Shown here in pieces: positions 14,891 through 31,898 of a DNA stretch of 64,000 bases. This DNA is from Candidatus Omnitrophota bacterium (GTDB lineage: Bacteria > Omnitrophota > Omnitrophia > Omnitrophales > Aquincolibacteriaceae), in assembly GCA_043808175.1 (NCBI GenBank), contig JAZDFE010000002.1:4906-68905 (forward strand), written 5' to 3'. Numbering within the stretch: position 1 is the stretch's first letter; every line of letters begins with the position of its first letter. The translations under genes were made by a program, and so were the position numbers. Below the pieces are notes generated by a model. That model had not been told where the DNA came from and did not search any database. It was given only the letters and a program-made list of their open reading frames with translations.

Positions 14891-15004
14891 AGGCTGTCCA
14901 TTCGTAGGACGCCATGATTTTCATTAATCAAAAAACGGATAGGGAATCATGACTGTACTAGTTTCTTCATGGTTTCTTTTAATGAATGACAAACCAGTAT
15001 GCCT
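14891..15004. repeat. hairpin-module array (AT-loop family)
   Basis: CGTAGGACGCC leader. Modules CCATGATT..(ttcattaatc)..AATCATGactgtac and GGTTT..(cttttaatgaatgac)..AAACCagtatgcc. Confidence 0.75.
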
Positions 15005-15012: not shown

Positions 15013-16284
15013 TTATGGATTGATGGTTGAATTAGCGGATTGGATCGCTTTATAAAGCTTTTGGGCCAGATCTTTGTTTAAATTATTTAATATCGTGTAT
15101 TGTTGCAACGCAGAATCCGTCTCATGAAAAGATAGATGCGACATCCCAAGACCGTAATAGGCCATGGAATTCCGGGCATCCAAGGAGATGGCCTTATTGA
15201 AAGACTCGATCGCTTTTTTGACTTTGCCTTGCTGAAAATAGCTGTTACCCAAACCGACGTAAGCATTAGATTCCTTGGCGTTCAAGGAGATCGCCTTGTT
15301 ATAAAACTCGATCGCTTTTTCGGTATTGCCCTTCTGCACATCGATATTACCCAAACCGACGTAAGCACCGGCACACTTGGCGTCCACGGAGACGGCTTTC
15401 GTGAAAGACTCGATCGCTTTTTCGACCTTGCCCTTCTGAAAATAGATATGCCCTAAACCGACGCTAGCATTGGGATCCTTGGTGCCCAACGAGACGGCCT
15501 TGTTATAAAACTCGATCGCTTTATCGATATTGTTTTGCTGGAAATAGAGGTGGCCCAAACCGACGTAAGCATTAGGCTCCCTGGCGTCCACGGAAATGGC
15601 TTTATTGAAAGATTCGATCGCTTTTCCGGTATTGCCTTGCTGGAAATAGAGCTGACCTAAACCGACGTAAGCACTGGGCTCCTTGGCGTTCAAGGAGATG
15701 GCCTTATTGAAAGACTGAATCGCTCCGTCGATATTGCCTTTCTGGAAATAGAGATGACCCAAACCGACATAAGCGCCGGACTCCTTGGCACCCAAGGAGA
15801 TGGCCTTGTTATAAAACTCGATCGCTTTTTCGGCGTTGTCCTTCCGGGAATAGATGAAAGCCAACCCGACGTAGGCCCCGGAGCATTTGGCGTCCAAGAA
15901 GATGGCCTTATTGAATGATTCGACCGCTTTATCGTCATCGCCTTTCCGGGAATAGACATGACCCAAACCGACGTAAGCGCCGGAACTCTCGGCGTTCAGG
16001 GAAATGGCCTTATTGAAAGACTCGATCGCTTTATCGTCATCGCCTTTCTGAAAATAGAGATTCCCCAAACCGACGTAAGCATTGGAATCCTTGGCATCCA
16101 AAGAGATGGCCTTATTGAAAGACTCGATCGCTTTATTCATGTCGCCCTTTCTCACCGCTTCATTGCCGGCCCTAATAGACTCGCCCGCGTTTGCAGCGTA
16201 ACCGCTCGGATTACCGCAAATAAAAAATGCTGCTTGGGCAAAAAATATCAGGCTTACTAATCCGGAAAAGGAATGTTTTTTCAT
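15013..16284 (-). CDS. secreted TPR-repeat protein (ten near-identical 34-aa units)
   Basis: Trimmed to the ATG at 16284 (MKKHSFSGLVSLIFFAQAAFF signal-like). The unit AIESFNKAISLDAK.SNAYVGLG.LYFQKG...K is reiterated ten times, a 102-bp DNA period. Confidence 0.85.
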   Translation of the reverse strand: MKKHSFSGLVSLIFFAQAAFFICGNPSGYAANAGESIRAGNEAVRKGDMNKAIESFNKAISLDAKDSNAYVGLGNLYFQKGDDDKAIESFNKAISLNAESSGAYVGLGHVYSRKGDDDKAVESFNKAIFLDAKCSGAYVGLAFIYSRKDNAEKAIEFYNKAISLGAKESGAYVGLGHLYFQKGNIDGAIQSFNKAISLNAKEPSAYVGLGQLYFQQGNTGKAIESFNKAISVDAREPNAYVGLGHLYFQQNNIDKAIEFYNKAVSLGTKDPNASVGLGHIYFQKGKVEKAIESFTKAVSVDAKCAGAYVGLGNIDVQKGNTEKAIEFYNKAISLNAKESNAYVGLGNSYFQQGKVKKAIESFNKAISLDARNSMAYYGLGMSHLSFHETDSALQQYTILNNLNKDLAQKLYKAIQSANSTINP

Positions 16285-16524
16285 TTTTGATCCCTCGCAT
16301 AAGTGGTTTGTTGCCAAAGGGAAATCACCGGGTGGCTCTTCCCCGATCCGGGGACGATTTTTTGGAGATAGTATTAAATTCTTTCTTTGCTTCCGCAAGC
16401 ATTTTCTCCCGGCTCATTCTGACCTGCTCCACGGAACGGTGCCGGCACGTTCGAGAGAGTGGCGGGTGATCTTCGGACCCATGATGGGGGCGTTACGCGG
16501 AGGATCCGTTCCAAGTGGATCTTA

Positions 16525-17970
16525 CTACTTATTAAATACTTCCCTAAGGATCGCGTCTGCGATATTTTGAGCTAAAAGCTGGTTGCCTTTTTGAGTGCAA
16601 TGGCCGAATTCTCCGCCGAATATATCCACAAAATACTCTTGATAACCTCCTTTCTTCAGCGCCCCCTTGAATACCTTCTCGTTATCCACAAAAATAAGGC
16701 CATCCTTTATCTCGAACATTCTTTTTAACGGCTCCACATGACGGACAGGATATTGCACGCAAACCAATCTTACGCCTTTTGCATCCAGGAATTCTTTGAG
16801 TTTGCGGTAGTTGTCAACGGTCATAGAACCGACATATTCCAACCTGGCCGCATTCATCTTTTTAGCATATTTTTTTGCCAGTTCCGGTTTGCCGCTTTCT
16901 TCGTAGAGCAATGACAGGGTGTCATAGATACGATCGTTCACAGGATCAAGCTCGACGGCTTTCTTGAAGGCATCGATAGCCTGGGGTAATTTGTCATGGC
17001 TTCGATAAAACCGCCCCAGTTCGATATAGGCATTATTGCTTTCAGGATCAAGCTCGGTGAGTCTCTTGAGCAGTTTTTCGGCTTCGGAGAATTTTCCCTG
17101 GAACCGGTAAAACCCTTCCAATCCTTCAAGCGCGGCATGGTTTCTAGGATTGATCTCGATGGCTTTCTTGTACATGTCTTCGGATTGGGGGAATTTGTTT
17201 TGCTCCCGATAAAGCCATCCTAACTGAAAGTAGGCATTATCGTTCTTAGGATTGAGCTGGATGGCTTTTTTGAATAACTCTTCGGCTTCTTTGAGAAATT
17301 TACCATGCTCTTGATAAAGAAACCCTAAGCTCACGTAGACATTATCGTTTTTAGGTTCAAGTTCGATGGCTTTCTTAAGGGATTTTTCGGCCGCTTGAAA
17401 TTGCTTTTCCTCGTCATCCGTGCTTTCTAATACCACTTGTTTTTTTTCTTCTTTAGGGGCCGCTTGGGTCAGGCGCAACCATAGAAACCTTGCCAGTTTA
17501 TAGATCCTGAGAGACCGGATGAAAAGCGTCCCTCTTGAAGTCGTGGGTGTTTCGATCGGAACATAGTCGCCCCCATCATTGACCCCCATCATCGCAACTA
17601 CCATATCGGGATGATACTCGTCCAAATAAGATTCTACGCGCCTCAAGATAGCGGTGGTATTCGTACCGATCTTGCCTTGATCTATGACGCTGAACCGTAT
17701 CCCGATATTACGCTCGTTCAAGACTTGCTCGAGAAGGTAAGGGTATTTCCCCTGAGTGGTAGACTCCCCTAAACAGAGAATGCGATGGGCACCTTTTTGT
17801 TTTATGGATCGTAAATTCCCGTACTGTTGTACCGATGCCAGAACAAACCCGCCCAGGCGCATTCCCGCCTCAAGAAGTAAAAGAGATAAGACCAAACCCA
17901 ATAGCACGAGGACTGTTTTTTGCCAAGCCGAGGTTGTTATTTGCGAGGATCTTTTCTTATTCATTAGCAC
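16525..17970 (-). CDS. membrane-anchored SGNH/GDSL-like hydrolase with inserted TPR repeats
   Basis: N-terminal TM segment. SGNH block I LCLGESTTQG, block III MGVNDGG, C-terminal FGHCTQKGNQLLA. About five TPR units lie in between (KNDNVYVSLGFLYQEHGKF...). Confidence 0.65.
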   Translation of the reverse strand: MLMNKKRSSQITTSAWQKTVLVLLGLVLSLLLLEAGMRLGGFVLASVQQYGNLRSIKQKGAHRILCLGESTTQGKYPYLLEQVLNERNIGIRFSVIDQGKIGTNTTAILRRVESYLDEYHPDMVVAMMGVNDGGDYVPIETPTTSRGTLFIRSLRIYKLARFLWLRLTQAAPKEEKKQVVLESTDDEEKQFQAAEKSLKKAIELEPKNDNVYVSLGFLYQEHGKFLKEAEELFKKAIQLNPKNDNAYFQLGWLYREQNKFPQSEDMYKKAIEINPRNHAALEGLEGFYRFQGKFSEAEKLLKRLTELDPESNNAYIELGRFYRSHDKLPQAIDAFKKAVELDPVNDRIYDTLSLLYEESGKPELAKKYAKKMNAARLEYVGSMTVDNYRKLKEFLDAKGVRLVCVQYPVRHVEPLKRMFEIKDGLIFVDNEKVFKGALKKGGYQEYFVDIFGGEFGHCTQKGNQLLAQNIADAILREVFNK

Positions 17971-18123: not shown

Positions 18124-18127
18124 TTAT

Positions 18128-18268
18128 CCGTAGGGCGCCATGATTTTCATTAATCGAAAAATAAGGGGTAACCAGGGCAGTCCAAGTCACCCTTTATGAA
18201 AAGAAGATCAAGACTTGGGCTGTACTAGTTTCTTTATTGTTGCTTTTATTAAACGATCAATCGGTACG
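18128..18268. repeat. hairpin-module array (AT-loop family)
   Basis: CGTAGGGCGCCATGATTttcattaatc...; CAAGTC..GACTTGggctgtac; ...tcggtacgc junctions. Confidence 0.7.
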
Positions 18269-18269
18269 C

Positions 18270-18893
18270 TTACTTTTGCGCGAGCTCTTTCAGGACTTTC
18301 AGGGCCTTGTCGTAATCCGGCTCATTGATGTTCTCTTTGACATATTCCACATAGCGCACGTTCCCCCGGGGACCCACGATGAAAATGGCGCGGGAAAGCA
18401 GGCGCATCCCCTTGATCAGCACGCCGTATTTTTCCCCGAAGTCCGCGGTACGATGGTCCGAGAGTGTCCGTACGCCCAGGATCCCGTCGGTCTTGCAAAA
18501 ACGCTTTTGCGCGAACGGCAGGTCCATACTGATAAAAAGAACGGTGACCCCGGGGAAGGTGGACACGGCCTCCTCGTTGAACCGGTGGATCTCCATCCTG
18601 CAGACCATCGTATCCAGCGACGGTACCGAGGCGATGAGCGTGACCTTGCCTTTCAGATCACTCAGCCGAACATCGCTCATGTTGGGCGCCTGTACCACAA
18701 AATCCGGCGCCTTATCCCCGACGGCGATCTCCGGCCCCAGCAGCGTGACGGGCTCCCCTTGCATCGTGGCGACCCCGTTGCGTTCCTGCACAAGAGCGGG
18801 CAATTCCGCGAATACCAGCGAGGACACAAGCCCCAAACACGCCGCCAAGATCCAAACCACTTTCATTTTTCCCGCATGGATTTTTTTCATCAT
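18270..18893 (-). CDS. tpx: thiol peroxidase (Tpx-type peroxiredoxin) with signal peptide
   Basis: SVPSLDTMVCRMEIHRFN (peroxidatic Cys) and FAQKRFCKTDG (resolving Cys). Start moved to the ATG at 18893 next to AGGAG. Confidence 0.88.
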   Translation of the reverse strand: MMKKIHAGKMKVVWILAACLGLVSSLVFAELPALVQERNGVATMQGEPVTLLGPEIAVGDKAPDFVVQAPNMSDVRLSDLKGKVTLIASVPSLDTMVCRMEIHRFNEEAVSTFPGVTVLFISMDLPFAQKRFCKTDGILGVRTLSDHRTADFGEKYGVLIKGMRLLSRAIFIVGPRGNVRYVEYVKENINEPDYDKALKVLKELAQK

Positions 18894-18925: not shown

Positions 18926-19825
18926 TTAAACTTGGCCCAGCCAGTCCGGCGGCGCGATCTCTTTCCAGCGGCGGCGAATGGCTTCATAACGACCGGGATC
19001 AAGGGGGCCCTTGCTGACGATACACGCGTTCTCCTGCCAACGGCCCGGATGCTGGGTCCCGACGATCGCAACAGAAACACCCGGCACACTCAGCACAAAT
19101 CGCAGGGCTGTCGCCACGGCCTCGTCCTCCGGAGCTTTCAGAAAATCATAATCCAGTTTTTTAAAACGTTCCCAATAAGGCGCGTGGTACTCGATGGGTC
19201 GTCTCTTATGCCGCCAGGCAACATTGGCGATCGGCCGTTTCGCGATCACGCCCATGCCTTGTTTCACCGCGACGGGCAAAATGGAGTCGATAGAATGTTG
19301 GTCCGCAAGATTGATCGACATTTGCAGCGTGTCAAAAACCCCGGTCCGCACCGCATAAAGCGCGGCATCGTTCTCGCCGCTGTACCCGATGAACCGGGTC
19401 TTTCCGGATCGCTTGGCCTTTTTTATAAAATCGATCACGACGCCCTTTTCCAGGACCTTCCGCGAACAACTGTGCAACTGAAAAAGATCGAGATGACCGG
19501 TGCGCAAGCGTTTAAGACTTTGCTCCAGGCTATTTTGAAGACGGACGGGATCTGCCCAGTCGGCGGGATTTTCGAACCCGCGCGAGTGCCCGCATTTGGT
19601 GAAGAGAAAAAAATCCTCACGGCGATGCGCGACCGCGCGGCCGATACTTTCCTCGCTAGTCCCGTAACATTCGGCGGTATCGATCACATTGAGCCCGGCA
19701 TCCAGCGCGCTGCCGAGCAAACGCTCCACCTCCGGAAGTGAGGTATTCTCAAGGCCGACCTCGGCGCCCCCGAACCCCAGGACCGCCACTTCCAAACTTG
19801 TTTTCCCAAGCTTGCGTTTTTCCAT
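18926..19825 (-). CDS. aldo/keto reductase family oxidoreductase
   Basis: 299 aa. Motifs LGFGGAEVG, NVIDTAECYG..SEE.IG and LFTKCGH are typical of the AKR fold. Confidence 0.85.
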   Translation of the reverse strand: MEKRKLGKTSLEVAVLGFGGAEVGLENTSLPEVERLLGSALDAGLNVIDTAECYGTSEESIGRAVAHRREDFFLFTKCGHSRGFENPADWADPVRLQNSLEQSLKRLRTGHLDLFQLHSCSRKVLEKGVVIDFIKKAKRSGKTRFIGYSGENDAALYAVRTGVFDTLQMSINLADQHSIDSILPVAVKQGMGVIAKRPIANVAWRHKRRPIEYHAPYWERFKKLDYDFLKAPEDEAVATALRFVLSVPGVSVAIVGTQHPGRWQENACIVSKGPLDPGRYEAIRRRWKEIAPPDWLGQV

Positions 19826-19863
19826 TGAATCACCTCCCCAACCTTTCCCCGCCTGCCCTGTTT

Positions 19864-20094
19864 TTATGTATTCTTCGATTCTTGCTCCGGGCGCCGGAGG
19901 TCTTCCGGACTTTGGTTTTCTTCCCCGGGGGTTGTTGTCCCGGCCTCGGATGAAGAAAGCGCTTTTTCTGCTCGCCGGGCCGCGATCGCTGTTCTCGCGG
20001 CCCTGATACCGAAGATGGCATGCGCCGGAGGCGCTTCAAGCAGGAAGGTCCCCGCCACCAGCCCCGCCATGATGAGTTTAAAAGTTTTTGACAT
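19864..20094 (-). CDS. small secreted hypothetical protein
   Basis: Trimmed to the ATG at 20094, which has GGGAGGTGG upstream. MSKTFKLIMAGLVAGTFLLEAPPAHA looks like a signal peptide. The rest is low-complexity. Confidence 0.45.
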   Translation of the reverse strand: MSKTFKLIMAGLVAGTFLLEAPPAHAIFGIRAARTAIAARRAEKALSSSEAGTTTPGEENQSPEDLRRPEQESKNT

Positions 20095-20137
20095 CTTCCA
20101 CCTCCCGTATTTTGATCGAATGGCACCGGCTACCATT

Positions 20138-20668
20138 TTATCCGTGGATCGTGGTACGTGTCCCCGGAATTTCTCGGTAGATCTCAAGGTCCTGTTCTGA
20201 AAATAGAACGAAGATCACTTTTTCAAGGGACTCCGGATCTTCCTCCAGGAACCTCCGGACCGTTCCCACGGCAATCGCGGCGGCCTTCCGGATGGGAAAC
20301 CTGTAGGCCCCGGTCGAAATGGAGGGGAACGCGATCGTTTTCAAGTGATGGGTTTGAGCGCATTTTAAGGAGTTCCTGTAACAGGAGGCCAAAAGTGCTT
20401 CCTCTTGAGACTTTCCTCCGTGCCACACAGGGCCTACGGTATGAATGACAAAACGCGCCGGAAGCTCGTACCCCTTCGTGATCTTGGCCTGCCCCGTCTC
20501 GCAGCTACCCAGGCCTTTGCATGCTTCGAGAAGCGCCGGACCGGCGGCCCGGTGGATCGCGCCATCGACTCCCCCGCCGCCGAGCAGGGTCCGGTTGGCC
20601 GCGTTCACGATCGCATCGCAGCTGAGACGGGTAATATCGCCATGGATGAGTTCGATCGCAGTCTTCAT
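20138..20668 (-). CDS. macro-domain protein (O-acetyl-ADP-ribose deacetylase, YmdB-like)
   Basis: [43 protein letters not shown]. The last ~10 codons ([11 protein letters not shown]) are encoded by a heptad-repeat half element at 20143-20172. Confidence 0.88.
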
Positions 20669-20785
20669 AGGTAAGATCCCGGTTCAACAAGGCTCATGCC
20701 GGGATTATAGTGTGAGGATCATCCGCGGGAAATGAAAAACACCGGCACCCAGTTCAAAGCTTTTCGGAACGGCCCACCTGCACTG

Positions 20786-20849
20786 CCGTCCCGAGTCCCG
20801 GCGGTTCGTGGCTCGTGGCCCGTGTCCCGATGCCGTACACGTCACACCC
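20786..20849. repeat. GC-rich heptad repeat block (CGTGG/CGTGTCC units)
   Basis: gtcccgagtcccggcggttCGTGGctCGTGGccCGTGTCCcgatgccgtacacgtcacaccc. Positions 20805-20946 are 141/142 identical to 23776-23917. Confidence 0.85.
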
Positions 20850-20850
20850 A

Positions 20851-21110
20851 AGAAATGACGCCTGATTCTCCTATTAAGTTTTATAAAGAATCAGTGCAGC
20901 ACCGACTTTCAATTAACTGCTCTTATCGACAGTCGGTACGGCATCGCCTGGTTTCATTTAAGAGATGATTGAGAACCAGTGCTGTCCTGGCCTCCGATTA
21001 ATTTTTCAATAATAGCCAGGGCGTACTTGCACACAGGTACAAGTGCCGAGATGCTTGATATCGTTCTGAGCTCGTCTTTTTTGCTAGGCTGTCCGTAGGA
21101 CGCCTATTTT
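20851..21110. repeat. hairpin-module array (AT-loop family), five or more modules
   Basis: CTGATTCT..AGAATCAGtgcagc; ACCGACT..AGTCGGTacggc; CTGGTT..AACCAGtgctgtc; CTGGC..GCCAGggcgtac; ACTTGCACacagGTACAAGT; ends ...ggctgtccgtaggacgcc. Confidence 0.8.
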
Positions 21111-21111
21111 T

Positions 21112-21294
21112 TTACGCCTTCCCGCTCTTCACTAATCTTTCGGCCTCGAGCCAGATCTCAAGGTCATTGTTCGGAACGCACCCTTTTTGCTCCCAAAGTT
21201 CCCTGGCTTTCTTTTGAATGCGCGCATTCAGCTCTTCCTTTGAAAGCTTGGGTGCTGAAGCTCTACTCCACCCCAGATCTGTTATCTTTGCCAT
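21112..21294 (-). CDS. DUF2934-type small protein
   Basis: Trimmed to the ATG at 21294, which has AGGAG upstream. KKARELWEQKGCVPNNDLEIWLEAER matches the DUF2934 pattern (ELWE..G.P.G.D...WL.AE). Confidence 0.65.
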   Translation of the reverse strand: MAKITDLGWSRASAPKLSKEELNARIQKKARELWEQKGCVPNNDLEIWLEAERLVKSGKA

Positions 21295-21392
21295 ATTCCG
21301 CTCCTTTTGTGTTAGTGAAACGACGTGCAGTAACATATCCCTTGCGTGCGGCTTTGTCAGCAAAAAAGTTGCCGCTCCAATGGCGTATGGGA

Positions 21393-21657
21393 CGGCGTAC
21401 TGGTTTATCATTTATTTAAAAAATAATAATGAAACTAGTACTGTCATGATTACCGTCCAAACTTTTCATTTCTTTTTCAAAACGGTAGTCGGCACTGATT
21501 TTCATTTAATTTTTAGATTGGAAATCAGTACAGTCCCAACCAACCCTTAAATGAATCGGAGGGTTGGGGCTGGACGGCCCCAATCTCAGCTATGCTTCGA
21601 TTGATAGGTATTGGGACCGTTTATTTTTTGATTGATGAAAATCATGGCGTACCGACC
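21393..21657. repeat. hairpin-module array (AT-loop family), modules in both orientations
   Basis: CTGGTTT..AAACTAGtactgtc; CTGATTTtcatttaat..AAATCAGtacagtc; CCCAACC..GGTTGGGgctggac; GGCCCCAAT..ATTGGGACC; inverted copy of the CCATGATTTTCAT module. Confidence 0.8.
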
Positions 21658-21707
21658 GGAAGAGAATGAGGATCAGGGAATGAAACGATTATTTCTGACG
21701 CTTACTC

Positions 21708-21771
21708 GAGCCACGAGCCAAGCACCACGCACCACGAAGCTCGTGTCCCGTGGTTCGTGGCACGTGTCCCC
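21708..21771. repeat. GC-rich heptad palindrome
   Basis: gagCCACGagCCAAGcaCCACGcaCCACG-aagct-CGTGTCCCGTGGttCGTGGcaCGTGTCC, directly after the histidine-kinase stop. Confidence 0.85.
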
Positions 21772-21774
21772 GTA

Positions 21775-22890
21775 CTATTTCCTGGGCAGCGTAAAAATAA
21801 ATTTGCTGCCCTTTCCCGGCTCGCTTTCGACCCAGATCCTGCCCTGATGAAGCTCGACAATGTCCTTGACGATGGGAAGTCCAAGACCGGTCCCTTCCTG
21901 TTTTTCGGCGGTCAGACGCTCGAATTTGTCGAACAACTTGCCAAAATCCTCCTTGGCGATCCCCGGCCCCGAATCGGAGATCTCGAAACGGACCTCTTCT
22001 TCAGTTCCGGAAAGGCGGAGGATGATCTTGCCGCCGGAAGGAGTGTATTTGACGGCGTTGCTGAGCAAATTGATGAGGACCTCGGTCAGCTTGTCACGGT
22101 CCGCCAGGACCTCGCCCGCGCTCTCTGAAAAATCTTTTTCGAGGAGAAGGTTCTTTTTCGAGATCTCATTGGCATCGCCGGCAAGGACCTCCTCGGCCAG
22201 GGCGGCGATCCCGAAACTTTCTTTTTTCAACTTCATCTTTCCCGCTTCGATCTTTGAAAGATCGAGAAGATCCGTGACCAGCCGGATAAGCCTTTCCGTA
22301 TTTTTGAGGGCGATCGTAAGCACCTCCCGCTGTTCCTCGCTCACCGCGCCGGCCGAACCGTCCAAGACATAGTCCAGCGAAAGCTGCATGTTGCTCAAGG
22401 GATTTTTGAATTCATGGGAGACATTGGCGACAAAAGCCGACTTCCGCTCGTCCATCTGTTTCAAAAGCTCCTCGGCCTCTTTGATCTTGCTGATATCATT
22501 CCCGACGCAGAGGATCTCCTTGGTCTCGCCCTTCGCGTCGGACAAGGCCTTATTGGTCCAGGCGATCCACACCCGCTCCCCGCTGCGAAGCATGTTCTCA
22601 TTTTCGTTATTCACATACTTCTCGGGATAGCGCACGATATCATCAACCATGGCCTTCTGGTCCCTGCCCGCGCTGTCCGTCACCGGCGCGATCGTCCCGA
22701 TGGCGCTTTTACCCAAGATCTCCTTCTCCTCAAATCCGAAGAACTCCTGCGCGAACTTATTGAGGAAGGTGATCCTGCCCTGGGTATCCATGCGCAGGAT
22801 GATGCTGTTGGCGTCCTGGACCAGCCTGCGATAAGAGTCCTCGCTTTGTCCGAGCGTCTTACCGGCTTTCATGCTGCTCATGCCTCCCAT
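21775..22890 (-). CDS. PAS-domain sensor histidine kinase
   Basis: PAS region (YRRLVQDANSIILRMD...). HisKA H-box VSHEFKNPLS. HATPase N/G boxes (NLLSNAVKYTP, DSGPGI, GTGLGLPIV). Confidence 0.9.
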   Translation of the reverse strand: MGGMSSMKAGKTLGQSEDSYRRLVQDANSIILRMDTQGRITFLNKFAQEFFGFEEKEILGKSAIGTIAPVTDSAGRDQKAMVDDIVRYPEKYVNNENENMLRSGERVWIAWTNKALSDAKGETKEILCVGNDISKIKEAEELLKQMDERKSAFVANVSHEFKNPLSNMQLSLDYVLDGSAGAVSEEQREVLTIALKNTERLIRLVTDLLDLSKIEAGKMKLKKESFGIAALAEEVLAGDANEISKKNLLLEKDFSESAGEVLADRDKLTEVLINLLSNAVKYTPSGGKIILRLSGTEEEVRFEISDSGPGIAKEDFGKLFDKFERLTAEKQEGTGLGLPIVKDIVELHQGRIWVESEPGKGSKFIFTLPRK

Positions 22891-22895
22891 CCCCT

Positions 22896-23279
22896 CTACT
22901 GCTCTTTCTGATCGTCGGATTCGGATTTTGGATGATCGACGGCATCGGCAATTTTTTGCTTCGCCATGAGGGTCTTGAAGTCTAAAGATTTTACCGCCTT
23001 CACAACCTCAGGGTCATAGGCGAGGGCCTGAACATTAGGATCGGAGGCCAGGCCGGCAACGGTTTTCATGACCTCCGGATCGTCCATGACCGCGGGCTGG
23101 AGCTCCTGCAACTCGCTGGGGAGATTCTCGGGATCGGAAGAGACGGTCCCTTCGGAGGATGGAACGCTCCCGTCATCCGGGGTGCTCCCGTCCGTTGATC
23201 CGGTCTCCTCTCCATAGACGGTGCCGGCAAGTAAGGCGAATGCCGAAACAAAAAACACAAGCAAAAGGATCTTTTTCAT
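22896..23279 (-). CDS. secreted hypothetical protein
   Basis: Signal peptide MKKILLLVFFVSAFALLAGTVYG. The acidic/Pro-rich mature part has no recognisable motif. Confidence 0.6.
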   Translation of the reverse strand: MKKILLLVFFVSAFALLAGTVYGEETGSTDGSTPDDGSVPSSEGTVSSDPENLPSELQELQPAVMDDPEVMKTVAGLASDPNVQALAYDPEVVKAVKSLDFKTLMAKQKIADAVDHPKSESDDQKEQ

Positions 23280-23295
23280 TTTATCTCCTATTCAT

Positions 23296-23715
23296 TTAAG
23301 TTCCCGCCATCTGCACCACGATATCGCGTTGGCGGGGGCGGTTGTCGAATTCCGTCAGGACCACCTGCTGCCACGTGCCGAGCGTGAGTTTACCGTTCTC
23401 GAACGGGATGACAAGCGACGGCCCCTGAAGGAGCGCGCGCAGGTGGCTGAACCCGTTGGCGTCCCCCCACGAAGCATCGTGCGCGTACCCGGTCTTGCGC
23501 GGGACAAGCTTTTCATAGAGCGCCCGGACGTCCTTGACCAGGCCCGGCTCATATTCGAACGTCGTGACCGCGGCCGTGGAACCGGTCACAAAAACCGTGA
23601 GACTTCCCTGCCTCAAGGCCGACCGCTTCAGGATCTCTACGATCCGCTCCGTCAGGTCGATCAGATCCGGATCGCCCTTCGTCTCCACCGTTATGTGCTC
23701 CGTGATGATCTTCAT
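23296..23715 (-). CDS. YjbQ/UPF0047 family protein (secondary thiamine-phosphate synthase-like)
   Basis: Trimmed to the ATG at 23715 (MKIITEHITVETKG...). Motifs TGSTAAVTTFEYEPG and GFSHLRALLQGPS. The upstream 32 codons of the ORF (PGTRDT repeats) are translated repeat DNA. Confidence 0.85.
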   Translation of the reverse strand: MKIITEHITVETKGDPDLIDLTERIVEILKRSALRQGSLTVFVTGSTAAVTTFEYEPGLVKDVRALYEKLVPRKTGYAHDASWGDANGFSHLRALLQGPSLVIPFENGKLTLGTWQQVVLTEFDNRPRQRDIVVQMAGT

Positions 23716-23727
23716 CTTCTTTTCGTT

Positions 23728-23820
23728 CCCCGTGTCCCTTGTCCCTGGAGTTATCGTGTCCCGTGTCCCCGGAATTTCGTGGCTCGTGGCCCGTGTCCCG
23801 ATGCCGTACACGTCACACCC
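23728..23820. repeat. GC-rich heptad repeat block
   Basis: CGTGTCCcttgtccctggagttatCGTGTCCCGTGTCCccggaatttCGTGGctCGTGGccCGTGTCC... Its right part is shared with 20805-20849. Confidence 0.85.
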
Positions 23821-23829
23821 AAGAAGTGA

Positions 23830-24106
23830 CGCCTGATTCTCCTATTAAGTTTTATAAAGAATCAGTGCAGCACCGACTTTCAATTAACTGCTCTTATCGA
23901 CAGTCGGTACGGCATCGTACTTGTTCACCGGCGCAAGTGCGGTCAGAGTACGAAGCTGATATTATGCTCCGACTCTGCCGTCCCAATACTTATCAATTTC
24001 TGCAAAGCAGAAATTGGGGCGGTCTTGGTTACCGTTGATCAAAAGAAAATTAAAACCAGGGCCGTACTTGTACACAGGTACAAGTGCCTACGGTACCGGT
24101 ACCGAT
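23830..24106. repeat. hairpin-module array (AT-loop family)
   Basis: The first two modules are identical to 20862-20942. Then come ACTTG..CAAGT, CAGAGT..ACTCTGccgtc, CCCAATACTTATCAATTTCTGC..GCAGAAATTGGGG, TGGTT..AACCAgggccgtac, ACTTGTACacagGTACAAGT and GGTACCGGTACC. Confidence 0.8.
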
Positions 24107-24126
24107 CTATTTTCATTTCAGCCTCC

Positions 24127-24768
24127 TTATGGAACCAACCGGGCGCCCATCTCAAAAGCCCTCCGGAGGTCCTTCGGAAAAACATCCCGCCGGCGGGCCG
24201 CCTTTTGGGCCGGATCGAAACGGGTCGCGACATATTTGGAATAATCATCAAACTGGAGCGTATCATACACCTGCAAGGTCTCCGCCGGCCCGAGGACCCT
24301 TCCCATCATGGCGCCCGTCTCGTTCAAGCTCCGGTCCCAGCCCAGCTGGACCGCCATCTTCTCCGTCGTGCCGAGGGCATAGAGGATCCCCACACGCATC
24401 TTCCCGGGGAAAAGCGACACCGACGGGTCCGTGTACGTGTAAAAAGGAAAAACCAGCCGCTCGATCAAAGAGCGCATCGCGCCCGTGGCGCAGCCCAGGT
24501 ACACCGGCGACCCCAGGAGGATCCCGCCGGCGGTCTCGATCTTCCGCAGGAACGGCGTCAGGCCGTCCTCCATCGCGCAGCGGCCGTAACTTTTTCCGCC
24601 TTTCAGCTTGCAGGAGAAACAACTCGTGCAGCCTTTATAATCCAGATCGTAAAGATGCACCAGTTCCGTCTCCGCCCCGCGCGAGGCCGCCCCTTCGAGC
24701 GCGCTCTTGAGCAAAAGGGCCGTGTTCCACTCCTTGCGGGGACTCCCGTTGAACGCAATGACCTTCAT
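24127..24768 (-). CDS. flavodoxin-like fold NAD(P)H-dependent FMN reductase / iron-sulfur flavoprotein family
   Basis: MKVIAFNGSPRKEWNT (typical N-terminus), Cys cluster CTSCFSC...C, GSPVYLGCATGAMRSLIERL. Confidence 0.75.
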   Translation of the reverse strand: MKVIAFNGSPRKEWNTALLLKSALEGAASRGAETELVHLYDLDYKGCTSCFSCKLKGGKSYGRCAMEDGLTPFLRKIETAGGILLGSPVYLGCATGAMRSLIERLVFPFYTYTDPSVSLFPGKMRVGILYALGTTEKMAVQLGWDRSLNETGAMMGRVLGPAETLQVYDTLQFDDYSKYVATRFDPAQKAARRRDVFPKDLRRAFEMGARLVP

Positions 24769-24847
24769 ACCGGATCCTTTCTCGGTTTGAATTGATGCCG
24801 GTTATCTTTGATCGCTCCTACCAGTCTCCGATACCCGCACTGTTTCT

Positions 24848-24903
24848 ACGTGTCCCGAGTCCCGTGTCCCCGGAATTTCGTGTCCCGTGTCCCCGTGTCC
24901 CCT
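24848..24903. repeat. GC-rich heptad repeat block
   Basis: aCGTGTCCCGAGTCCCGTGTCCccggaatttCGTGTCCCGTGTCCCCGTGTCCcc. Confidence 0.8.
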
Positions 24904-25267
24904 AATCTCGGAACTGTTCCCAAAGCCGCTTGAAGCGGGGTTCGTAGATAAGGTCGTAGAGATGCGTCTTATCCGGGAAAAGACTCCGGATCAGTTCTCT
25001 GAACTTCGCTTTTTCGATCTCGATATCCACGGCCTCGCTGTCGGTGCTCAGGATCAGGAACACGATCCGGTCCTGCATCTTCTTGATCTCGGATAATTTT
25101 TCCTCTTCGATCGCAAGGTCATACTGCAGGCAGATCCGGGCAAGCCGGGCGAGGACCTCATCGCCGCCAAGTCCGAGCGGGGCCCCGCAGGGACAGACGA
25201 TCTCGCGGCCGGACTTGAAAAGCGACGCGTCATATTCCTTTTGGCATTTCGGACACTTCACCGGCAT
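24902..25267 (-). CDS. zinc-ribbon hypothetical protein
   Basis: N-terminal CPKC...CPCG four-Cys knuckle. The helical remainder has no recognisable family motif. Confidence 0.55.
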   Translation of the reverse strand: MPVKCPKCQKEYDASLFKSGREIVCPCGAPLGLGGDEVLARLARICLQYDLAIEEEKLSEIKKMQDRIVFLILSTDSEAVDIEIEKAKFRELIRSLFPDKTHLYDLIYEPRFKRLWEQFRD

Positions 25268-25285
25268 GGCCCCTGTCTGCGACGC

Positions 25286-25564
25286 TTATTCCTTGATCTT
25301 GTCAAATTCCTCGACGGGAATAGCGGGAAAACTGGTGAAGGCAATACCGGTCAATTTATTTAACGCGATCGAAGCCTTCATCACTTCCGCAGTCCCGGGA
25401 AAATTGGTAATGACCACGAGGTCGTATTTTCCCAGAAGCGCGTAGGCGGAAACCAGCTTGCCTCCGGCCTTTGCGATCACCTCAGCCGCCTTTTGGGTCC
25501 TCTCGGCGGAAATGCCTCCCAGCGCCTCTTTGGAATATTTCCCGTACATGAAATAAACAGCCAT
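25286..25564 (-). CDS. GYD-domain protein
   Basis: Trimmed to the ATG at 25564, which has AGGAGG upstream. MAVYFMYGKYS...GKYDLVVI... matches the GYD family pattern. Confidence 0.75.
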   Translation of the reverse strand: MAVYFMYGKYSKEALGGISAERTQKAAEVIAKAGGKLVSAYALLGKYDLVVITNFPGTAEVMKASIALNKLTGIAFTSFPAIPVEEFDKIKE

Positions 25565-25660
25565 TTTTCCCTCCTTTTTCTTCGGTTTGAAACGACTCAT
25601 AGTCGGTTGAGAAAAAACACGGAAAAGACAAGTCCGGCCGTGTCCCGACGGTTCGTGGCT

Positions 25661-25775
25661 CGTGGCACGTGTCCCCGGAATTATTGTGTCCCGTGGTACG
25701 TGTCCCCGGAATTATTGTGTCCCGTGGCACGTGTCCCCGGAATTATTGTGTCCCATGGCTCGTGGCACGTGTCCC
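25661..25775. repeat. 3.5 tandem copies of a 31-nt unit (GC-rich heptad family variant)
   Basis: CGTGGCACGTGTCCCCGGAATTATTGTGTCC at 25661, 25692 (one substitution) and 25723, then a partial copy. The copies are contiguous with no spacers. Confidence 0.9.
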
Positions 25776-25780
25776 TGATT

Positions 25781-26152
25781 TTAGATCCGTTCTACGCTCA
25801 CGTGATCGCCGTCACGGACGGCGCCGAGAAGCGCTTTGAAATCGCCTTCGAGCTCCCCGAGGATGTTGCACCGGTCGGCAAGCCGGCATTCCGTACCTTT
25901 CGAGATGGGCGTGCGCCCGTAGGGCAATGCCAGACAGTTCCCCTGCGTCCAAAAACAAACCGTGCCGGGAACCACCACCTGATGGGCGTCCGCTTCAAGC
26001 GCCGCGCTCACGGGGACCTGAAAATAGACCTCGTTCCCCCACGTCTGCGCCGACGACGTCATAGGAAGCGCCGCGAGGATCTTGCCGGCTGTCGCCGTCT
26101 CCTTCAGCGTCGCAAAAATTTCAACTTCCCCGATTTTAATTTTAATTTGCAT
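25781..26152 (-). CDS. cyclophilin-like fold protein (small, function unknown)
   Basis: Trimmed to the ATG at 26152 (MQIKIKIGEVEIFATLKETATAGKILAALP...WGNEVYF...). The pattern matches the cyclophilin-like small-protein family. Confidence 0.65.
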   Translation of the reverse strand: MQIKIKIGEVEIFATLKETATAGKILAALPMTSSAQTWGNEVYFQVPVSAALEADAHQVVVPGTVCFWTQGNCLALPYGRTPISKGTECRLADRCNILGELEGDFKALLGAVRDGDHVSVERI

Positions 26153-26186
26153 CTTCTTTCCTTTTTCCGTTATCTGTTTCACTTTT

Positions 26187-26489
26187 TTATCTTATCGCAT
26201 AAAGCAAGAATAATACTACTCCCAAAACGGTTAATTTAAACGATAAGAATAATAGGGCGAATGGAACATTCGTTGCTTTGATCTTGCCCCGCAAATAAAG
26301 ATGGAGATTGTACAAAAAATAAGCGAGGAGGATCCCGTAGGCAACGGGACTGGCCCAGTGACAGCGCGTGCCGGCCGCAAAGAAATCAAACCCATAAATA
26401 ACAAGGGTTAAGAAAAACGAGACCGCATAGGGCCAGCAACAATCATGCTGGTAAAATACGCGGATATTTTCAATCAATGATCGCATCAT
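26187..26489 (-). CDS. small integral membrane protein (3 TM), hypothetical
   Basis: 100 aa with three hydrophobic segments and no motif. Confidence 0.5.
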   Translation of the reverse strand: MMRSLIENIRVFYQHDCCWPYAVSFFLTLVIYGFDFFAAGTRCHWASPVAYGILLAYFLYNLHLYLRGKIKATNVPFALLFLSFKLTVLGVVLFLLYAIR

Positions 26490-26525
26490 ATTCTAGCCGT
26501 CGAATGGTACCGGGGACCTTTCTCA

Positions 26526-27302
26526 TCAAGAAACCATGTAAAGCTCTTTCCAGATGGCTTCAAGTGCCTCAGCAGCGCCAAGGGGAATTTTAGTGTCCAC
26601 CCAACCGGAGATCTCGGTCTTGTCGGGGTTGATCTCCACGGTCGGTCTGTTGAGATCGGACGCAAGTGCCATGGGGTGCCGGATGTAAGGAAACACGCTC
26701 GTCGTTCCGATGGAAAAATAGATATCGAACGGCTGCCCCACCTCCCGCTCCATCAGGGCCACTTTATGCGGCTGCAGCCATTCCCCGAAGAAAACAACGT
26801 CCGGCCGGGCGATGGAATGACATTCCGGACAGCGCGGAGGAATGCTCAGGCGGTCATAATTCTCGACCCGGGTCTTCCAGCCGCATCTTTCACACCGGAG
26901 GTCGTGCATATCCCCGTGGATATCGATCACGTTCTTGGAGCCCGCCGCATGGTGAAAACCGTCGATATTCTGCGTCAGCACCCAGACCCGTTCGAAATGC
27001 CTCTCCATCTCCGCAATGATCTCGTGAGCGCGGTTATACCTGGCTCCCCGGCATCTTTTTTCTATCTGAGAAAGGTATTTCCACGTGATCTCGGGCTTTT
27101 TCCGGAGAGTCTCACCGGCTAGCGCCGTCTCGATCGGAATGCCGTCTTCCGTCGCGTCATTCTCATAAAGACCGCCCATCCCCCGGTAGGTCGGAAGCCC
27201 GGAATCCGCGGAGATCCCCGCGCCGGTGATGAACAGAATGCTCTTACAAGCTTTAAGAAGCTTCGCGACTTCTTTTATTTTTGAGTCGGCTGTTTGAACC
27301 AT
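26526..27302 (-). CDS. cobB: NAD-dependent protein deacylase (Sir2/CobB family)
   Basis: GAGISADSGLPTYRG. QNIDGFH (catalytic His). Zn ribbon CERCG...CPECH. The 258-aa size is canonical. Confidence 0.88.
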   Translation of the reverse strand: MVQTADSKIKEVAKLLKACKSILFITGAGISADSGLPTYRGMGGLYENDATEDGIPIETALAGETLRKKPEITWKYLSQIEKRCRGARYNRAHEIIAEMERHFERVWVLTQNIDGFHHAAGSKNVIDIHGDMHDLRCERCGWKTRVENYDRLSIPPRCPECHSIARPDVVFFGEWLQPHKVALMEREVGQPFDIYFSIGTTSVFPYIRHPMALASDLNRPTVEINPDKTEISGWVDTKIPLGAAEALEAIWKELYMVS

Positions 27303-27339: not shown

Positions 27340-27372
27340 CGAGTCCCGAGTCCCGAGTCCCGTGTCCCCTGT
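27340..27372. repeat. heptamer tandem CGAGTCC x3 + CGTGTCC
   Basis: CGAGTCCCGAGTCCCGAGTCCCGTGTCCcctg, immediately 3' of the metallopeptidase gene. The same junction occurs at 31872-31892. Confidence 0.85.
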
Positions 27373-27377
27373 TTTTG

Positions 27378-27755
27378 TCAGTAGGTCCCGTCTTTGATCA
27401 TGTGTTCATCCGAGATCCCGAAATAGTGCGCGAACTCATGAAGAACGGTATCCCGGACCGCCTTCCGAATCTCCCGCCGGCTGCGGCAGGACCGCGTGAG
27501 AGGCCCCCGGAAGACCGTGATCTTGTCCGGGAGAACGCTCCCGTCGTGGTGTGTCCTCTCCCCGAGCGGCACGCCTTCGTAAAGTCCCAGCAGGTCTTCT
27601 CCGGCCCCGGTCTCCTTTTTTTGACGGGCCGATGGCTCCTCCAGGATCACGATATTGATGTTCTCGAGCTTGCGCTTGAACTCCCGGGGAAGACTTTTCA
27701 CCGCGTCCCGGACCAATGCCTCGAATTCCCGCGTCGTCAAAAATCTTTTTTCCAT
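27378..27755 (-). CDS. small zincin-like metallopeptidase family protein (copy 1)
   Basis: 125 aa with C-terminal HEFAHYFG (HExxH). Nearly identical to 31899-32250. Confidence 0.75.
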   Translation of the reverse strand: MEKRFLTTREFEALVRDAVKSLPREFKRKLENINIVILEEPSARQKKETGAGEDLLGLYEGVPLGERTHHDGSVLPDKITVFRGPLTRSCRSRREIRKAVRDTVLHEFAHYFGISDEHMIKDGTY

Positions 27756-27765
27756 TTCAGAACCT

Positions 27766-27835
27766 TACCGGCCGTTGCCGTCTCCTTCAGCGTCGCAAAA
27801 ATCTCGATCTTCCCGATCTTAATTCTGATCTTCAT
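27766..27835 (-). pseudogene. 5' fragment of a cyclophilin-like gene
   Basis: MKIRIKIGKIEIFATLKETATAG, equivalent to the first ~23 codons of 25781-26152, then unrelated sequence. Confidence 0.6.
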
Positions 27836-27914
27836 CCTCTTTCGTTCTCCGTGACTCATTTCACGTTCTTTGTTAATGAAGTGATGTGTCCCCTGATTTG
27901 TGTTTATTGGTTCC

Positions 27915-29236: not shown

Positions 29237-29497
29237 GGGAAGTATACAACCAGATAGTTGTTTTTGCAAGGGATGTTCATGAACAGGATATTATGACTAA
29301 ATTAAGCTTAAGTCAATTTTATTTTGCTTTTAAATCATTTTGTAAAAAAACTACCCCTTTCGGACTTGATGACATGGTGACTTGATAGTAAGGCTAGCTT
29401 TAGGCTATGAGCTATCGGGTACGTGCTACGCTCTAAGCGTAGCGGCAGGGAGAGCTAGGATCGAAGTAGGTCCGGAGAGGCGGTGTCCCGGAATAAC

Positions 29498-29644
29498 GAA
29501 AAAGCCGCGCTTAAATGGCGCGGCTTTGTGGAGATAGATCTCCCGGCGCTTTAGCACATTTCCCGTCCCGCAGGACGGTGCTCGCCCACATGGGGTCAAG
29601 CTTTAGCGGAGCAAGTAACCTCTTTAAATCACCGCTTCTTCTAT
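29498..29644 (-). ncRNA. candidate ~150-nt sRNA, copy 1
   Basis: Conserved promoter (29651-29679), several hairpins (CCGTCC-tgcg-GGACGG; GGAGA-tcta-TCTCC; a 10-bp helix with a G-U that is valid only on the minus strand) and the intrinsic terminator GCCGCGC-catttaa-GCGCGGC-TTTTT. About 95 percent identical to 31563-31709. Confidence 0.5.
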
Positions 29645-29650
29645 ATAAGA

Positions 29651-29679
29651 ACTGTAGCTGACCTATCGCGTTTTGACAA
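29651..29679 (-). promoter_or_regulatory. sigma70-like promoter of sRNA candidate copy 1
   Basis: The minus strand reads TTGTCA-17 nt-TACAGT. Both hexamers are conserved in copy 2 while the 17-nt spacer sequence differs. Confidence 0.5.
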
Positions 29680-29715
29680 GAAAGCGAGACCTAGCAAGAA
29701 CTAACAGGAGCCGGG

Positions 29716-29775
29716 GTCATTCATTTCCAACCATTCTTCAATGAACCCGGCACTTAGGGTACCGGCACCGATCCA
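29716..29775. repeat. hairpin module (AT-loop family)
   Basis: CCGGGGTCattcatttccaaccattcttcaatGAACCCGG followed by GGTACCGGCACC. Related module at 30447-30488. Confidence 0.6.
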
Positions 29776-30378
29776 TTAACGTAAATAGGCAAGCACGCGA
29801 TAACTCATCGTTTTGCCCGGTGTTCGGTTGATGATCGTCACCCGTAAATATTTCCCGTAAACGGGTGTGTAAAGCGCTCGGCCCGTGGTCGGCCCCGTGG
29901 TAAGTGTCGCGAAATTCGGATGCCCTTCCCCATTGTCTTCGGCAAGTGAAGCGCCAAACTCCTGAACGCCCTGGTCCACCAAACGCGCGTCCTCACCTCC
30001 GGACTTATGATAGACCGTCGTCATCGCCGTCATCGAGAAATAGGCCTTCAGCTCATACATGGGCGTGATCGCCTGTTTCGTCAAAATACTTTCCGGAAAA
30101 GCTTCGACAAAAAGCGTGATCTCTTCATATCCGCTCACGTCAATATACACGGACTCTTGACTCTTGCCGCTTTCAAGTTGGACTTTGGCGAGAACCTCCA
30201 ACTCCTTTTTTTCTTTGATGACTTTGACGGGAGTGGGCTGCTCTGCAGCTGCAGCAATGACTCCTTGTGTTTCTGCAGCCAAAGATATCCCCGGCGATAA
30301 TACAAGCATGAGGAACCACATAGCATGGCAACATTTTCGAAGGATTCTTGATTCCATGCGGGCCATTATACAGCACAT
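29776..30378 (-). CDS. secreted hypothetical protein
   Basis: 200-aa ORF whose start is uncertain among five Met codons. Signal-like MWFLMLVLSPGISLAAE. No motif recognised. Confidence 0.55.
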   Translation of the reverse strand: MCCIMARMESRILRKCCHAMWFLMLVLSPGISLAAETQGVIAAAAEQPTPVKVIKEKKELEVLAKVQLESGKSQESVYIDVSGYEEITLFVEAFPESILTKQAITPMYELKAYFSMTAMTTVYHKSGGEDARLVDQGVQEFGASLAEDNGEGHPNFATLTTGPTTGRALYTPVYGKYLRVTIINRTPGKTMSYRVLAYLR

Positions 30379-30446
30379 GAAACTTGGATGTTACTAAAAC
30401 GTCCCCACCCTTTCCACTGCGCTTCAAGGGCGATACAAATCATCGA

Positions 30447-30732
30447 GGCCGGGATCATTCATTTTCATCCATGCTTTAATGGACCCGGCTCGATACCGCA
30501 CGCACTGAACGACCCATAAAGCTTAAATGAAGTTTAGTGCTGTCCCAATCAACCCTTAAAATTAATGGGAGGATTGGGACGCGACCTACCTTAAAAAGCG
30601 GCGGTATCGCCTGGTTTCATTTAAGAGATGATTGAGAACCAGTGCTGTCCTGGCCTCCGATTAATTTTCCAATGATAGCCAGGGCGTACTTGTACACAGG
30701 CACAAGTGCTTGGGGTACCGGTACCGGTCCGG
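30447..30732. repeat. hairpin-module array (AT-loop family)
   Basis: CCGGGATC..GGACCCGG; CACTGAAC..GTTTAGTGctgtc (G-T pair valid on the + strand reading); CCCAATC..GATTGGGacgcgac. After that, 30606-30709 is about 95 percent identical to 20943-21046. Ends with GGTACCGGTACCGG. Confidence 0.8.
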
Positions 30733-30733
30733 T

Positions 30734-31033
30734 TTATTTCCTAGCGACCGCTTTAAATCCGACCCCCGCGTGATGAAGTAAGAGAAGGATATTGAGGAAC
30801 CCCGGATTGCCGTTCCCGGAAAGCATCTTATAAAGACTCACCCGGTGGATCTTGCTCGTTCTCGCGAACCGGGTCATCCCTCCGCGGGCGTCGATCACGT
30901 TCTTTAATGCCATCAGGAACGCCTTTTTATCTCCCGCCTCCAGTGCCGCGTTAAGGTACTCTGCCGCCTCCTCGGGATCCTTCAAGGTCTTCAATAACCA
31001 ATCGCGATAGCTGACTGCCGGTGGCACTTTCAT
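30734..31033 (-). CDS. addiction-module antidote protein (HigA-family DNA-binding antitoxin)
   Basis: Trimmed to the ATG at 31033 (ATGA overlap with the killer gene). DPEEAAEYLNAALEAGD...GMTRFARTSKIHRVSLYKMLS. Confidence 0.75.
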   Translation of the reverse strand: MKVPPAVSYRDWLLKTLKDPEEAAEYLNAALEAGDKKAFLMALKNVIDARGGMTRFARTSKIHRVSLYKMLSGNGNPGFLNILLLLHHAGVGFKAVARK

Positions 31034-31472: not shown

Positions 31473-31562
31473 GAAAGGAGCTTTTAAAAGGTGTGGCTTA
31501 ATGGGAAGGGCTTAATGATCGGGGAAAAAAACGGAAACGGGACAACGCACAGTTTGTAAAAC

Positions 31563-31709: not shown

Positions 31710-31715
31710 AAAAGA

Positions 31716-31892: not shown

Positions 31893-31898
31893 TTTTTG

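Follow-up and report, generated by a model that had tools for sequence, protein, structure and literature searches.

How did a single intergenic array come to consist of two blocks that recur, separately, at two other loci? The question is raised by a 64-kb stretch of DNA of Candidatus Omnitrophota bacterium (the whole stretch analysed, hereafter the window), for which a preliminary description had proposed that arrays of hairpin modules are shuffled as multi-module cassettes. According to Pfam scans of 50 ORFs, the window is an ordinary chromosomal region that contains many small genes and toxin-antitoxin pairs.

Shared blocks in three intergenic arrays

The three loci concerned (arrays 1, 2 and 3, Table 1) are intergenic arrays located between co-oriented minus-strand genes, i.e., between the stop of one gene and the start of the next. 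In the gene sense (minus strand), the order of elements is stop codon, short spacer, terminal hairpin GCACTTGTACCTGTGTACAAGTAC, abutting modules, heptads (NNCCACG) and start codon. Array 1 is arranged in the same sense as stop, empty stop-adjacent hairpin, block B, block A and heptads.

Table 1. Positions of arrays, blocks, modules and heptads in the window (strand in brackets; relatives' contigs where named).
Feature	Position	Content and context
Array 1	20790-21111	Between stop of DUF2934 gene (21112-21294, -) and start of Macro-domain gene (20138-20668, -; Macro-domain protein MFH1207978)
Array 2	23716-24126	Between flavodoxin/FMN_red gene (24127-24768, -; flavodoxin MFH1207983) and yjbQ (23296-23715, -; YjbQ, MFH1207982)
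Array 2, parts	24064-24087	Terminal hairpin
	24021-24063, 23980-24020, 23941-23979, 23917-23940	Modules; then block A and heptads up to start codon
Array 3	30445-30733	Between antidote-like gene (30734-31060, -) and ORF 29776-30378 (-)
Array 3, parts	30542-30580, 30502-30541	Modules of second composite, which follows block B and is closed by GATACCGC/GCGGTATC
	30445-30491	Hairpin
Block A, copy 1	20805-20946	About 3.5 GC-rich heptads (CGTGGNN on + strand) and 119-nt composite element
Block A, copy 2	23776-23917	Found by repeat finder, self-BLAST and direct comparison
Block B, copy 1	20943-21046	Abutting modules 20946-20983, 20984-21022, 21023-21046
Block B, copy 2	30606-30709	Modules 30609-30646, 30647-30685, 30686-30709
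Block A composite	20828-20946	119 nt; perfect 11-bp outer inverted repeat CGATGCCGTAC (20828-20838) / GTACGGCATCG (20936-20946)
Block A composite, inner hairpins	20841-20859, 20860-20897, 20899-20936	From inverted-repeat scan and folds
Block A composite, second copy	23799-23917
Stop-adjacent hairpin, empty form	21085-21110	ATAGGC^GTCCTACGGACAGCCTA; full hairpin ATAGGCGTCCTACGGACAGCCTA
Other array	21397-21617	Five modules, upstream of DUF2934 gene
Module pair	14911-15003
Three modules	18137-18267
Two modules	36410-36486
Two modules	41649-41731	Downstream of uvrB; 41649-41693 87% identical to 23980-24024
Three modules	54377-54495	Beside heptads (~54540-54590), upstream of gene 53063-54370
Further module loci	35355-35378; 43979-44002
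uvrB insertion	43211-43294	Two 42-nt modules, in frame, 84 nt, inside uvrB (41834-43936, -)
Heptad sites, window	5088-5141, 21711-21775, 23716-23800, 24850-24900, 25655-25775, 31847-31896, 47720-47772, 49391-49426, 50731-50780, 54540-54590
Heptad sites, relatives	L002 6245-6320; L005 12565-12620

The two copies of block A are identical at 141 of 142 nucleotides; the single substitution that had been reported is located at position 20855 (A/G). Block B also recurs as described (100 of 104 nucleotides identical), with four substitutions (21006, 21011, 21030 and 21038) and not the five or so counted earlier. Its composition of three further modules agrees with the module coordinates. As for block A, the heptad segment was found as expected, and the remainder comprises three hairpins (19, 38 and 38 nt) instead of two hairpin modules. 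The view that the three loci carry different modules outside the shared blocks holds only in part: the common 24-nt hairpin GCACTTGTACCTGTGTACAAGTAC ends all three of them (copies 92-96% identical between loci), and region 24048-24107 matches region 30671-30729 at 85% outside the blocks.

In the self-BLAST and repeat-finder alignments, block A could be extended to 20797-20946/23768-23917 at 97% identity, or to 20788-20946 at 96% with gaps, and block B to 20939-21046/30602-30709 at 95%. Identity is lost abruptly at the ends of both blocks. Exact shared runs amount to 50 and 91 nt in block A, and the longest one in block B is 63 nt. The alignments of the two blocks overlap by 4-8 nt at 20939-20946 because the first bases of the second composite of array 3 resemble the outer stem of block A.

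Modules inside the blocks are 95-100% identical, the best pairs of modules outside them 75-90%, and the median of all pairs in the window is 56%. Judged by these identities, the similarity of the blocks is far beyond chance. Block identities of 99.3% and 96%, compared with 75-90% for other paralogous modules, indicate that copying was recent relative to the age of the family, as had been suggested. Both ends of block B lie on module boundaries, and so does the end of block A on its module side; at its opposite end, block A stops within the heptads, which are alike at many loci (for example, 20791-20828 and 25638-25675, 92%). The picture of cassettes is thus borne out as far as the modular construction of the arrays and the position of the block ends are concerned. 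It does not extend to general shuffling: two copying events were found, within 10 kb.

When the plus strand is read, all three arrays close with a GC-rich palindrome (twice GGTACCGGTACC) and a T-rich run behind it (21090-21112, 24091-24114 and 30717-30743). This arrangement resembles a terminator, and may be one, for transcription antisense to the flanking genes. A promoter or terminator role of the arrays was considered and rejected, since no strong sigma-70-like promoter site was found inside the arrays and terminator-like sites occur at background frequency (15 compared with 13.7 in shuffled sequence).

The hairpin module family and known palindromic repeats

The modules are 24 or 37-47 nt long (their sizes cluster at 24 and 37-43 nt), have a stem of 9-11 bp and usually an AT-rich loop, and abut without linkers. 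About 40 modules, delineated by hand at about 12 loci of the window, all fold as hairpins. Heads read G[CT][AC]C in 27 of 41 modules and tails G[GT][AG]C in 25 of 41, these ends being the outer stem pairs. The conserved junction motif mentioned in the preliminary description is supported in spirit: junctions carry ...G[GT][AG]C/G[CT][AC]C... (the slash marks the junction), and independent insertions are located at such motifs.

A covariance model trained on 28 modules detected 23 distinct sites in the window at E ≤ 0.01, of which 21 are located in the intergenic part (about 13%) and the other two in uvrB; this count is a census and not an independent test, as 18 of the 23 sites were training sequences. 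The resulting density of about 0.36 modules per kb in the 64 kb examined would extrapolate to hundreds per genome.

Several subfamilies can be told apart by the loop. In the subfamily with the TTCTTTTC loop (nine members, drawn from the window and from four relatives), compensatory changes were found in 7 of 11 stem pairs. In addition, 88% of cells are paired, compared with 20-45% when the partner column is slid, and none of 500 shuffles reached the observed score. The hairpin is therefore a conserved feature. Stem mismatches comprise 25 A-C and 15 G-T, or 13 and 11 when position 2 is left out; no clear mismatch asymmetry, and no clear sign of selection for RNA of one strand, was observed. One subfamily is found in both orientations (14942-15003 versus 21454-21394; 43209 on the plus strand versus 18178 on the minus strand). 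Neighbours within an array belong to different subfamilies, and orientation is assignable by the loop within a subfamily only.

A scan of genome and metagenome contigs with the terminal-hairpin pattern revealed one other population, Omnitrophica RIFOXYB12_FULL_50_7 (L001, L008 and L009); two further matches are chance occurrences in coding DNA. The module family is also present in independent assemblies of relatives. In the literature searched, no link between Omnitrophota and palindromic repeats was found. On the sequences compared, the modules are an undescribed, lineage-specific family of hairpin repeats that is unusually small, dense and demonstrably dynamic.

The influence of small palindromic repeats in bacteria extends from genome structure and mRNA stability to the sequence of proteins. 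To our knowledge, work on such repeats (REPs/BIMEs, MITEs and RPEs) has been almost confined to Proteobacteria, Firmicutes and cyanobacteria. The present family is a dense and fast-evolving example in an uncultured phylum known from metagenomes only.

REPs are predominantly extragenic and occur in more than 100 copies per genome, and the gene of their cognate Y1 (IS200/IS605-like) transposase lies between two inverted REPs. A conserved GT(A/G)G head is found on the 5' side of the REP palindrome, and the palindrome is preserved by compensatory changes (PMC2817692). REPs and their clusters, the BIMEs (bacterial interspersed mosaic elements), are associated with RAYT/TnpA-REP Y1 transposases (PMC2817692, PMC3333891, PMC3116915). 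The modules are similar to them in being short imperfect palindromes, mostly extragenic and often located just after stop codons, that form mosaic arrays of several motif types; the palindrome is kept by compensatory change, the family is lineage-specific and its density varies among relatives. The size and stem-loop structure of a REP (imperfect palindrome of about 20-40 nt) are found in the approximately 40 folding modules, but the head is not: module heads are GCCC, GCAC, GTAC and GTCC, none being GTAG or GTGG. The GT[AG]G matches counted in arrays 1 and 2 appear, by eye, to be located in the heptads (CGTGGNN) and not in module heads. Unlike in REPs, the ends G[CT][AC]C and G[GT][AG]C belong to the module stem, and the AT-rich loops are long (14-26 nt); moreover, the modules abut and do not show the regular spacing of a BIME, whose REPs alternate in orientation. 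No RAYT gene was found among the 50 ORFs of the window that were scanned, and Omnitrophota are outside the groups with described RAYT/REP systems. In their behaviour the modules most closely resemble REPs clustered into BIMEs, but they are not classed here as REPs.

The Y1 transposase domain (PF01797) had no match among the 50 ORFs, which are most of the longer ORFs of the window apart from one of 2784 aa, and no transposase or integrase was found in the 64 kb by these Pfam scans. A RAYT link was also sought in relatives but not found: the only Y1_Tnp gene detected is that of the more distant relative L005, in whose sequence none of these modules occurs and where unrelated repeats flank the gene. 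This IS200-like gene (L005, 448-1670; 318 aa) has a duplicated 5' part. The inverted repeat GGGTCAGGTCTTTA/TAAAGACCTGACCC lies on either side of it, so that it resembles a RAYT gene with its repeats.

The Rickettsia palindromic elements (RPEs) have entered conserved housekeeping genes in frame, so that a peptide is added and the ORF is left intact (PMC10969869). Similar in-frame insertions are found here in uvrB (modules) and valS (heptad palindromes). Unlike the RPEs (about 100-150 bp, Rickettsia only), the unit is of 42 nt, mostly intergenic and arranged in tandem arrays. A BOX element consists of boxA, a variable number of boxB and then boxC. Pneumococcal BOX, RUP and SPRITE elements are found in bunches and also inserted within each other (PMC10969869). 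The modules share with these and other MITEs a modular, non-coding, non-autonomous nature and stable hairpins, but single modules are smaller than usual MITEs and have neither a known parent insertion sequence nor a clear target-site duplication; MITE-like size (about 50-500 bp) together with terminal inverted repeats is a property of the 119-nt composite only. In cyanobacteria, as Elhai and colleagues are said to have described in Genome Research in 2008, palindromic mobile repeats of about 20-30 nt nest in each other and in heptamer STRR and occur occasionally inside genes. The intergenic mini-palindromes nested among heptamers in the window appear similar to these small dispersed repeats and STRR, from which they differ in their unrelated sequences and in the phylum.

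Several other candidates were tried and rejected. Integron attC sites, imperfect palindromes of 57-141 nt bounded by R'' (RYYYAAC) and R' (GTTRRRY) cores and accompanied by an intI gene, are not supported, since no RYYYAAC-N40-130-GTTRRRY pair was found on either strand of the window and there is no integrase. A CRISPR or tandem-repeat reading does not apply, as the modules are not uniform repeats with spacers. As for a viral origin, no real IMG/VR match was obtained, the single match (L015) being a chance one in GC-rich coding DNA.

Gain and loss of modules and heptads among relatives

The most direct comparison with relatives is offered by uvrB. The insertion adds 28 residues in the UvrB interaction domain (Pfam UvrB_inter, PF17757), the match to which stops at residue 214, just ahead of the insertion. 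Its two modules belong to the same subfamilies as those at 21453-21491 and 21576-21617. In the closest relative (L002/P0002, about 96% amino-acid identity) the site is uninterrupted, ATCGATTTC/GGGCCCGAGG, whereas L003, L014 and P0053 carry the insertion; in relatives at 80-90% identity it is located at the same site. The stem of one uvrB module differs between genomes at three consecutive, compensatory pairs. GG(T/G)CCC is found at both ends of the insertion, which could represent a target-site duplication or a similarity between target and element. The distribution in uvrB also fits a single old insertion followed by precise losses.

A second case is the stop-adjacent hairpin, which is empty in array 1. 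Elsewhere, namely at 14903-15003 and 18126-18275 and in the relatives L004 (5586-5800) and L012 (17755-17870), one to three modules interrupt this hairpin between GGC and GTCC. In addition, five modules make up the window's array upstream of the DUF2934 gene, whereas the orthologous site of L012 (3774-3998) contains just two, which are related to them. The intergenic regions of L002 do not align with those of the window at all, although identity reaches 92-94% in the genes (93% for the nucleotides of the coding sequence). Module density varies markedly among relatives: the covariance model gave 23 sites in the 64-kb window, 2 in 20 kb of L012 and none in the L002 and L005 sequences searched (13 and 15 kb, respectively). 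No arrays orthologous to arrays 1-3 were found in the relatives' contigs compared. No clear target-site duplication was seen at the level of modules, and none is visible flanking the composite 20828-20946.

From these comparisons, the modules behave as insertable DNA that comes and goes between relatives. Their insertion points resemble module-module junctions, which would account for the clustering of modules next to and within one another.

The heptads accompanying the modules have a distribution of their own. Palindromic or tandem heptad repeats are located just upstream of many start codons. Their core is CCACG/CGTGG in the window, GTACG in L002 (whose genes are 93% identical), at the same site upstream of valS, and ACTTA in L005; in this comparison the heptads are conserved in position and species-specific in sequence. 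At 25655-25775, a 31-nt unit (three heptads and CGGAATTATT) is present three times over. In valS (minus strand), heptad palindromes of the form (NNCCACG)n-loop-(CGTGGNN)n are inserted in frame at ~46301-46361 and ~47569-47613, adding approximately 17 and 14 residues to valyl-tRNA synthetase relative to L002.

Origin of the arrays and of the copied blocks

The explanation that we favour, and regard as probable, is that the arrays are clusters resembling the BIMEs of E. coli, composed of lineage-specific small mobile palindromes, with recent copying at the level of blocks. The sharing of blocks between repeat clusters is expected of BIME-like clusters; the underlying family is undescribed.

The repeats, the covariation of their hairpins, their presence or absence among relatives and the block ends at module level are observed, whereas the mechanisms of insertion and copying, as well as any host function, are what we infer. 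Modules would enter at short sites like the module-module junctions (...GGC/GTCC..., ...GG/GNCCC...); with successive entries next to or within existing modules, and close to GC-rich heptads, mosaic arrays would arise. Blocks A and B are recent copies of multi-module stretches between arrays located 3 and 9.7 kb apart, and the three modules of block B end in the terminal hairpin shared by all three arrays. The most likely route of copying is exchange between arrays, by non-reciprocal recombination or by template switching, with shared heptads and shared junction or outer-stem sequence as anchors; alternatively, the 119-nt composite, with its terminal inverted repeats, may have been transposed as a unit. 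Gene conversion, which had been put forward beside recent copying, and transposition both fit the block copying. A candidate for the insertion of modules is an HUH/Y1 enzyme whose gene lies elsewhere and which, as in the case of REPs, would act on single-stranded hairpins.

A further-reaching proposal is offered tentatively, as possible and rather doubtful: undescribed self-nesting hairpin elements of about 40 nt, together with species-specific heptad palindromes, would in Omnitrophota of this lineage be actively mobilised by an enzyme recognising G[GT][AG]C/G[CT][AC]C on single-stranded hairpins and would build arrays, drive local change of gene order and write peptides into the essential genes uvrB and valS. 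If a dedicated mobilising enzyme exists, the junction motif is already well enough defined for testing.

An unlikely explanation, although the strongest of the alternatives, is that the arrays are primarily functional structured RNA, i.e., protective hairpins of 3'-UTRs or intercistronic regions or an antisense plus-strand transcript running from the heptads through the modules to the terminal hairpin and a terminator, and that the blocks are duplicated units kept alike by selection. It would account for the folding of the arrays, which on either strand is better than that of shuffled controls (z = -3.6 and -4.1), for the co-varying stems, for the plus-strand palindrome and T-rich run at the end of each array and for the position of every array after the stop codon of a co-oriented gene. 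However, the arrays have no Rfam match even at E ≤ 1, and there is no strand asymmetry of mismatches apart from position 2. The same subfamily is found in both orientations, modules are located inside coding sequence as well, and terminator-like sites are no commoner than in shuffled sequence. Moreover, relatives at 92-93% identity have no array, or a different one, at orthologous sites. A role as RNA would be compatible with the favoured explanation of mobile palindromes as a secondary, acquired one, as known for REPs. In the Rfam 15 search for an RNA family, rejected as a candidate, the sole match above the gathering score was a tRNA (38331-38404), and the matches at E ≤ 1 were to miRNA and snoRNA at chance level.

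The block A copies are direct repeats spaced by 2971 nt that flank yjbQ, a 127-aa ORF, the histidine kinase and DUF2934 genes and block B. This arrangement is accounted for by another alternative, which we consider improbable as a full explanation: ordinary segmental rearrangement, for example, a circular or translocated yjbQ-histidine kinase-DUF2934 segment integrated by homologous recombination at block A, with the modules serving as passive homology. The direct repeats flank exactly the segment from yjbQ to block B, the histidine kinase-DUF2934 pair is located elsewhere in four independent assemblies of a relative (L012, L016, L018 and L019), and gene-including duplications are found nearby. 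But block B, whose second copy is in an array 9.7 kb away with unrelated flanks, is left unexplained, as are the presence or absence of single modules and the uvrB insertion. Such a rearrangement is rather a possible mechanism for the block A event within the favoured explanation. The same 10 kb that contain the copied blocks hold other recent gene-including duplications, and repeat-mediated rearrangement is a plausible part of the local history.

Around yjbQ (18926-27302), the gene order is rearranged relative to L012, L016, L018, L019, L004 and L020. In relatives, yjbQ is followed by one small gene and the aldo-keto reductase gene, whereas in the window about 3.4 kb with a 127-aa ORF, the histidine kinase, DUF2934 and Macro-domain genes and a 98-aa ORF are located between yjbQ and the aldo-keto reductase gene. 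The histidine kinase-DUF2934 pair is located upstream of a SIR2 gene in L012-type genomes. A recent duplication includes a zincin-like gene (27347-27730 versus 31868-32251, 97.7%), another joins 29495-29719 and 31560-31784 at 93%, and the 5' ends of cyclophilin-like genes are also duplicated (26081-26188 versus 27764-27870, 78-82%).

A chimeric array 1 produced by collapsed or misjoined repeats is highly improbable: the source is a MAG, short-read assemblers break or misjoin at repeats and the gene order from yjbQ to the aldo-keto reductase gene is unlike that of all relatives compared, but the exact runs (≤91 nt in block A, ≤63 nt in block B) are shorter than usual reads and the largest k-mers and the assembly paths are therefore resolvable, a single pair of direct repeats (the A copies) permits just one graph path, the intervening histidine kinase and DUF2934 genes share their neighbourhood in relatives, and the relatives' independent assemblies hold the same module family.

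The family is useful in that module indels are seen between genomes 93% identical, insertions are found in frame in uvrB and valS, and the blocks coincide with a change of gene order. Such arrays fragment and can confound MAG assemblies. They also inflate ORF calls, since spurious plus-strand ORFs span them.

Other repeats of the window were recorded as well. A non-coding element of about 215 nt is present at 29495-29712 and 31560-31777 (minus strand), with a strong intrinsic terminator at its end and 93% identity between the copies. It is also found in relatives (L012, 867-1092 and, in part, ~18160-18330; L016; L018), at about 95% identity though the genes are more diverged. Full copies start inside the truncated start of a cyclophilin-like ORF (MKIKIKIG...), and each copy in the window is followed by a Gp49/HTH toxin-antitoxin pair. 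The element has no Rfam match, and its copies are too alike for a covariation test; it may be an ncRNA or the end of a mobile element. Finally, regions 9622-12171 and 15013-17970 contain long coding tandem repeats, with periods of 621-642 nt in an 849-aa ORF (no Pfam match) and of 102 nt in two TPR proteins.
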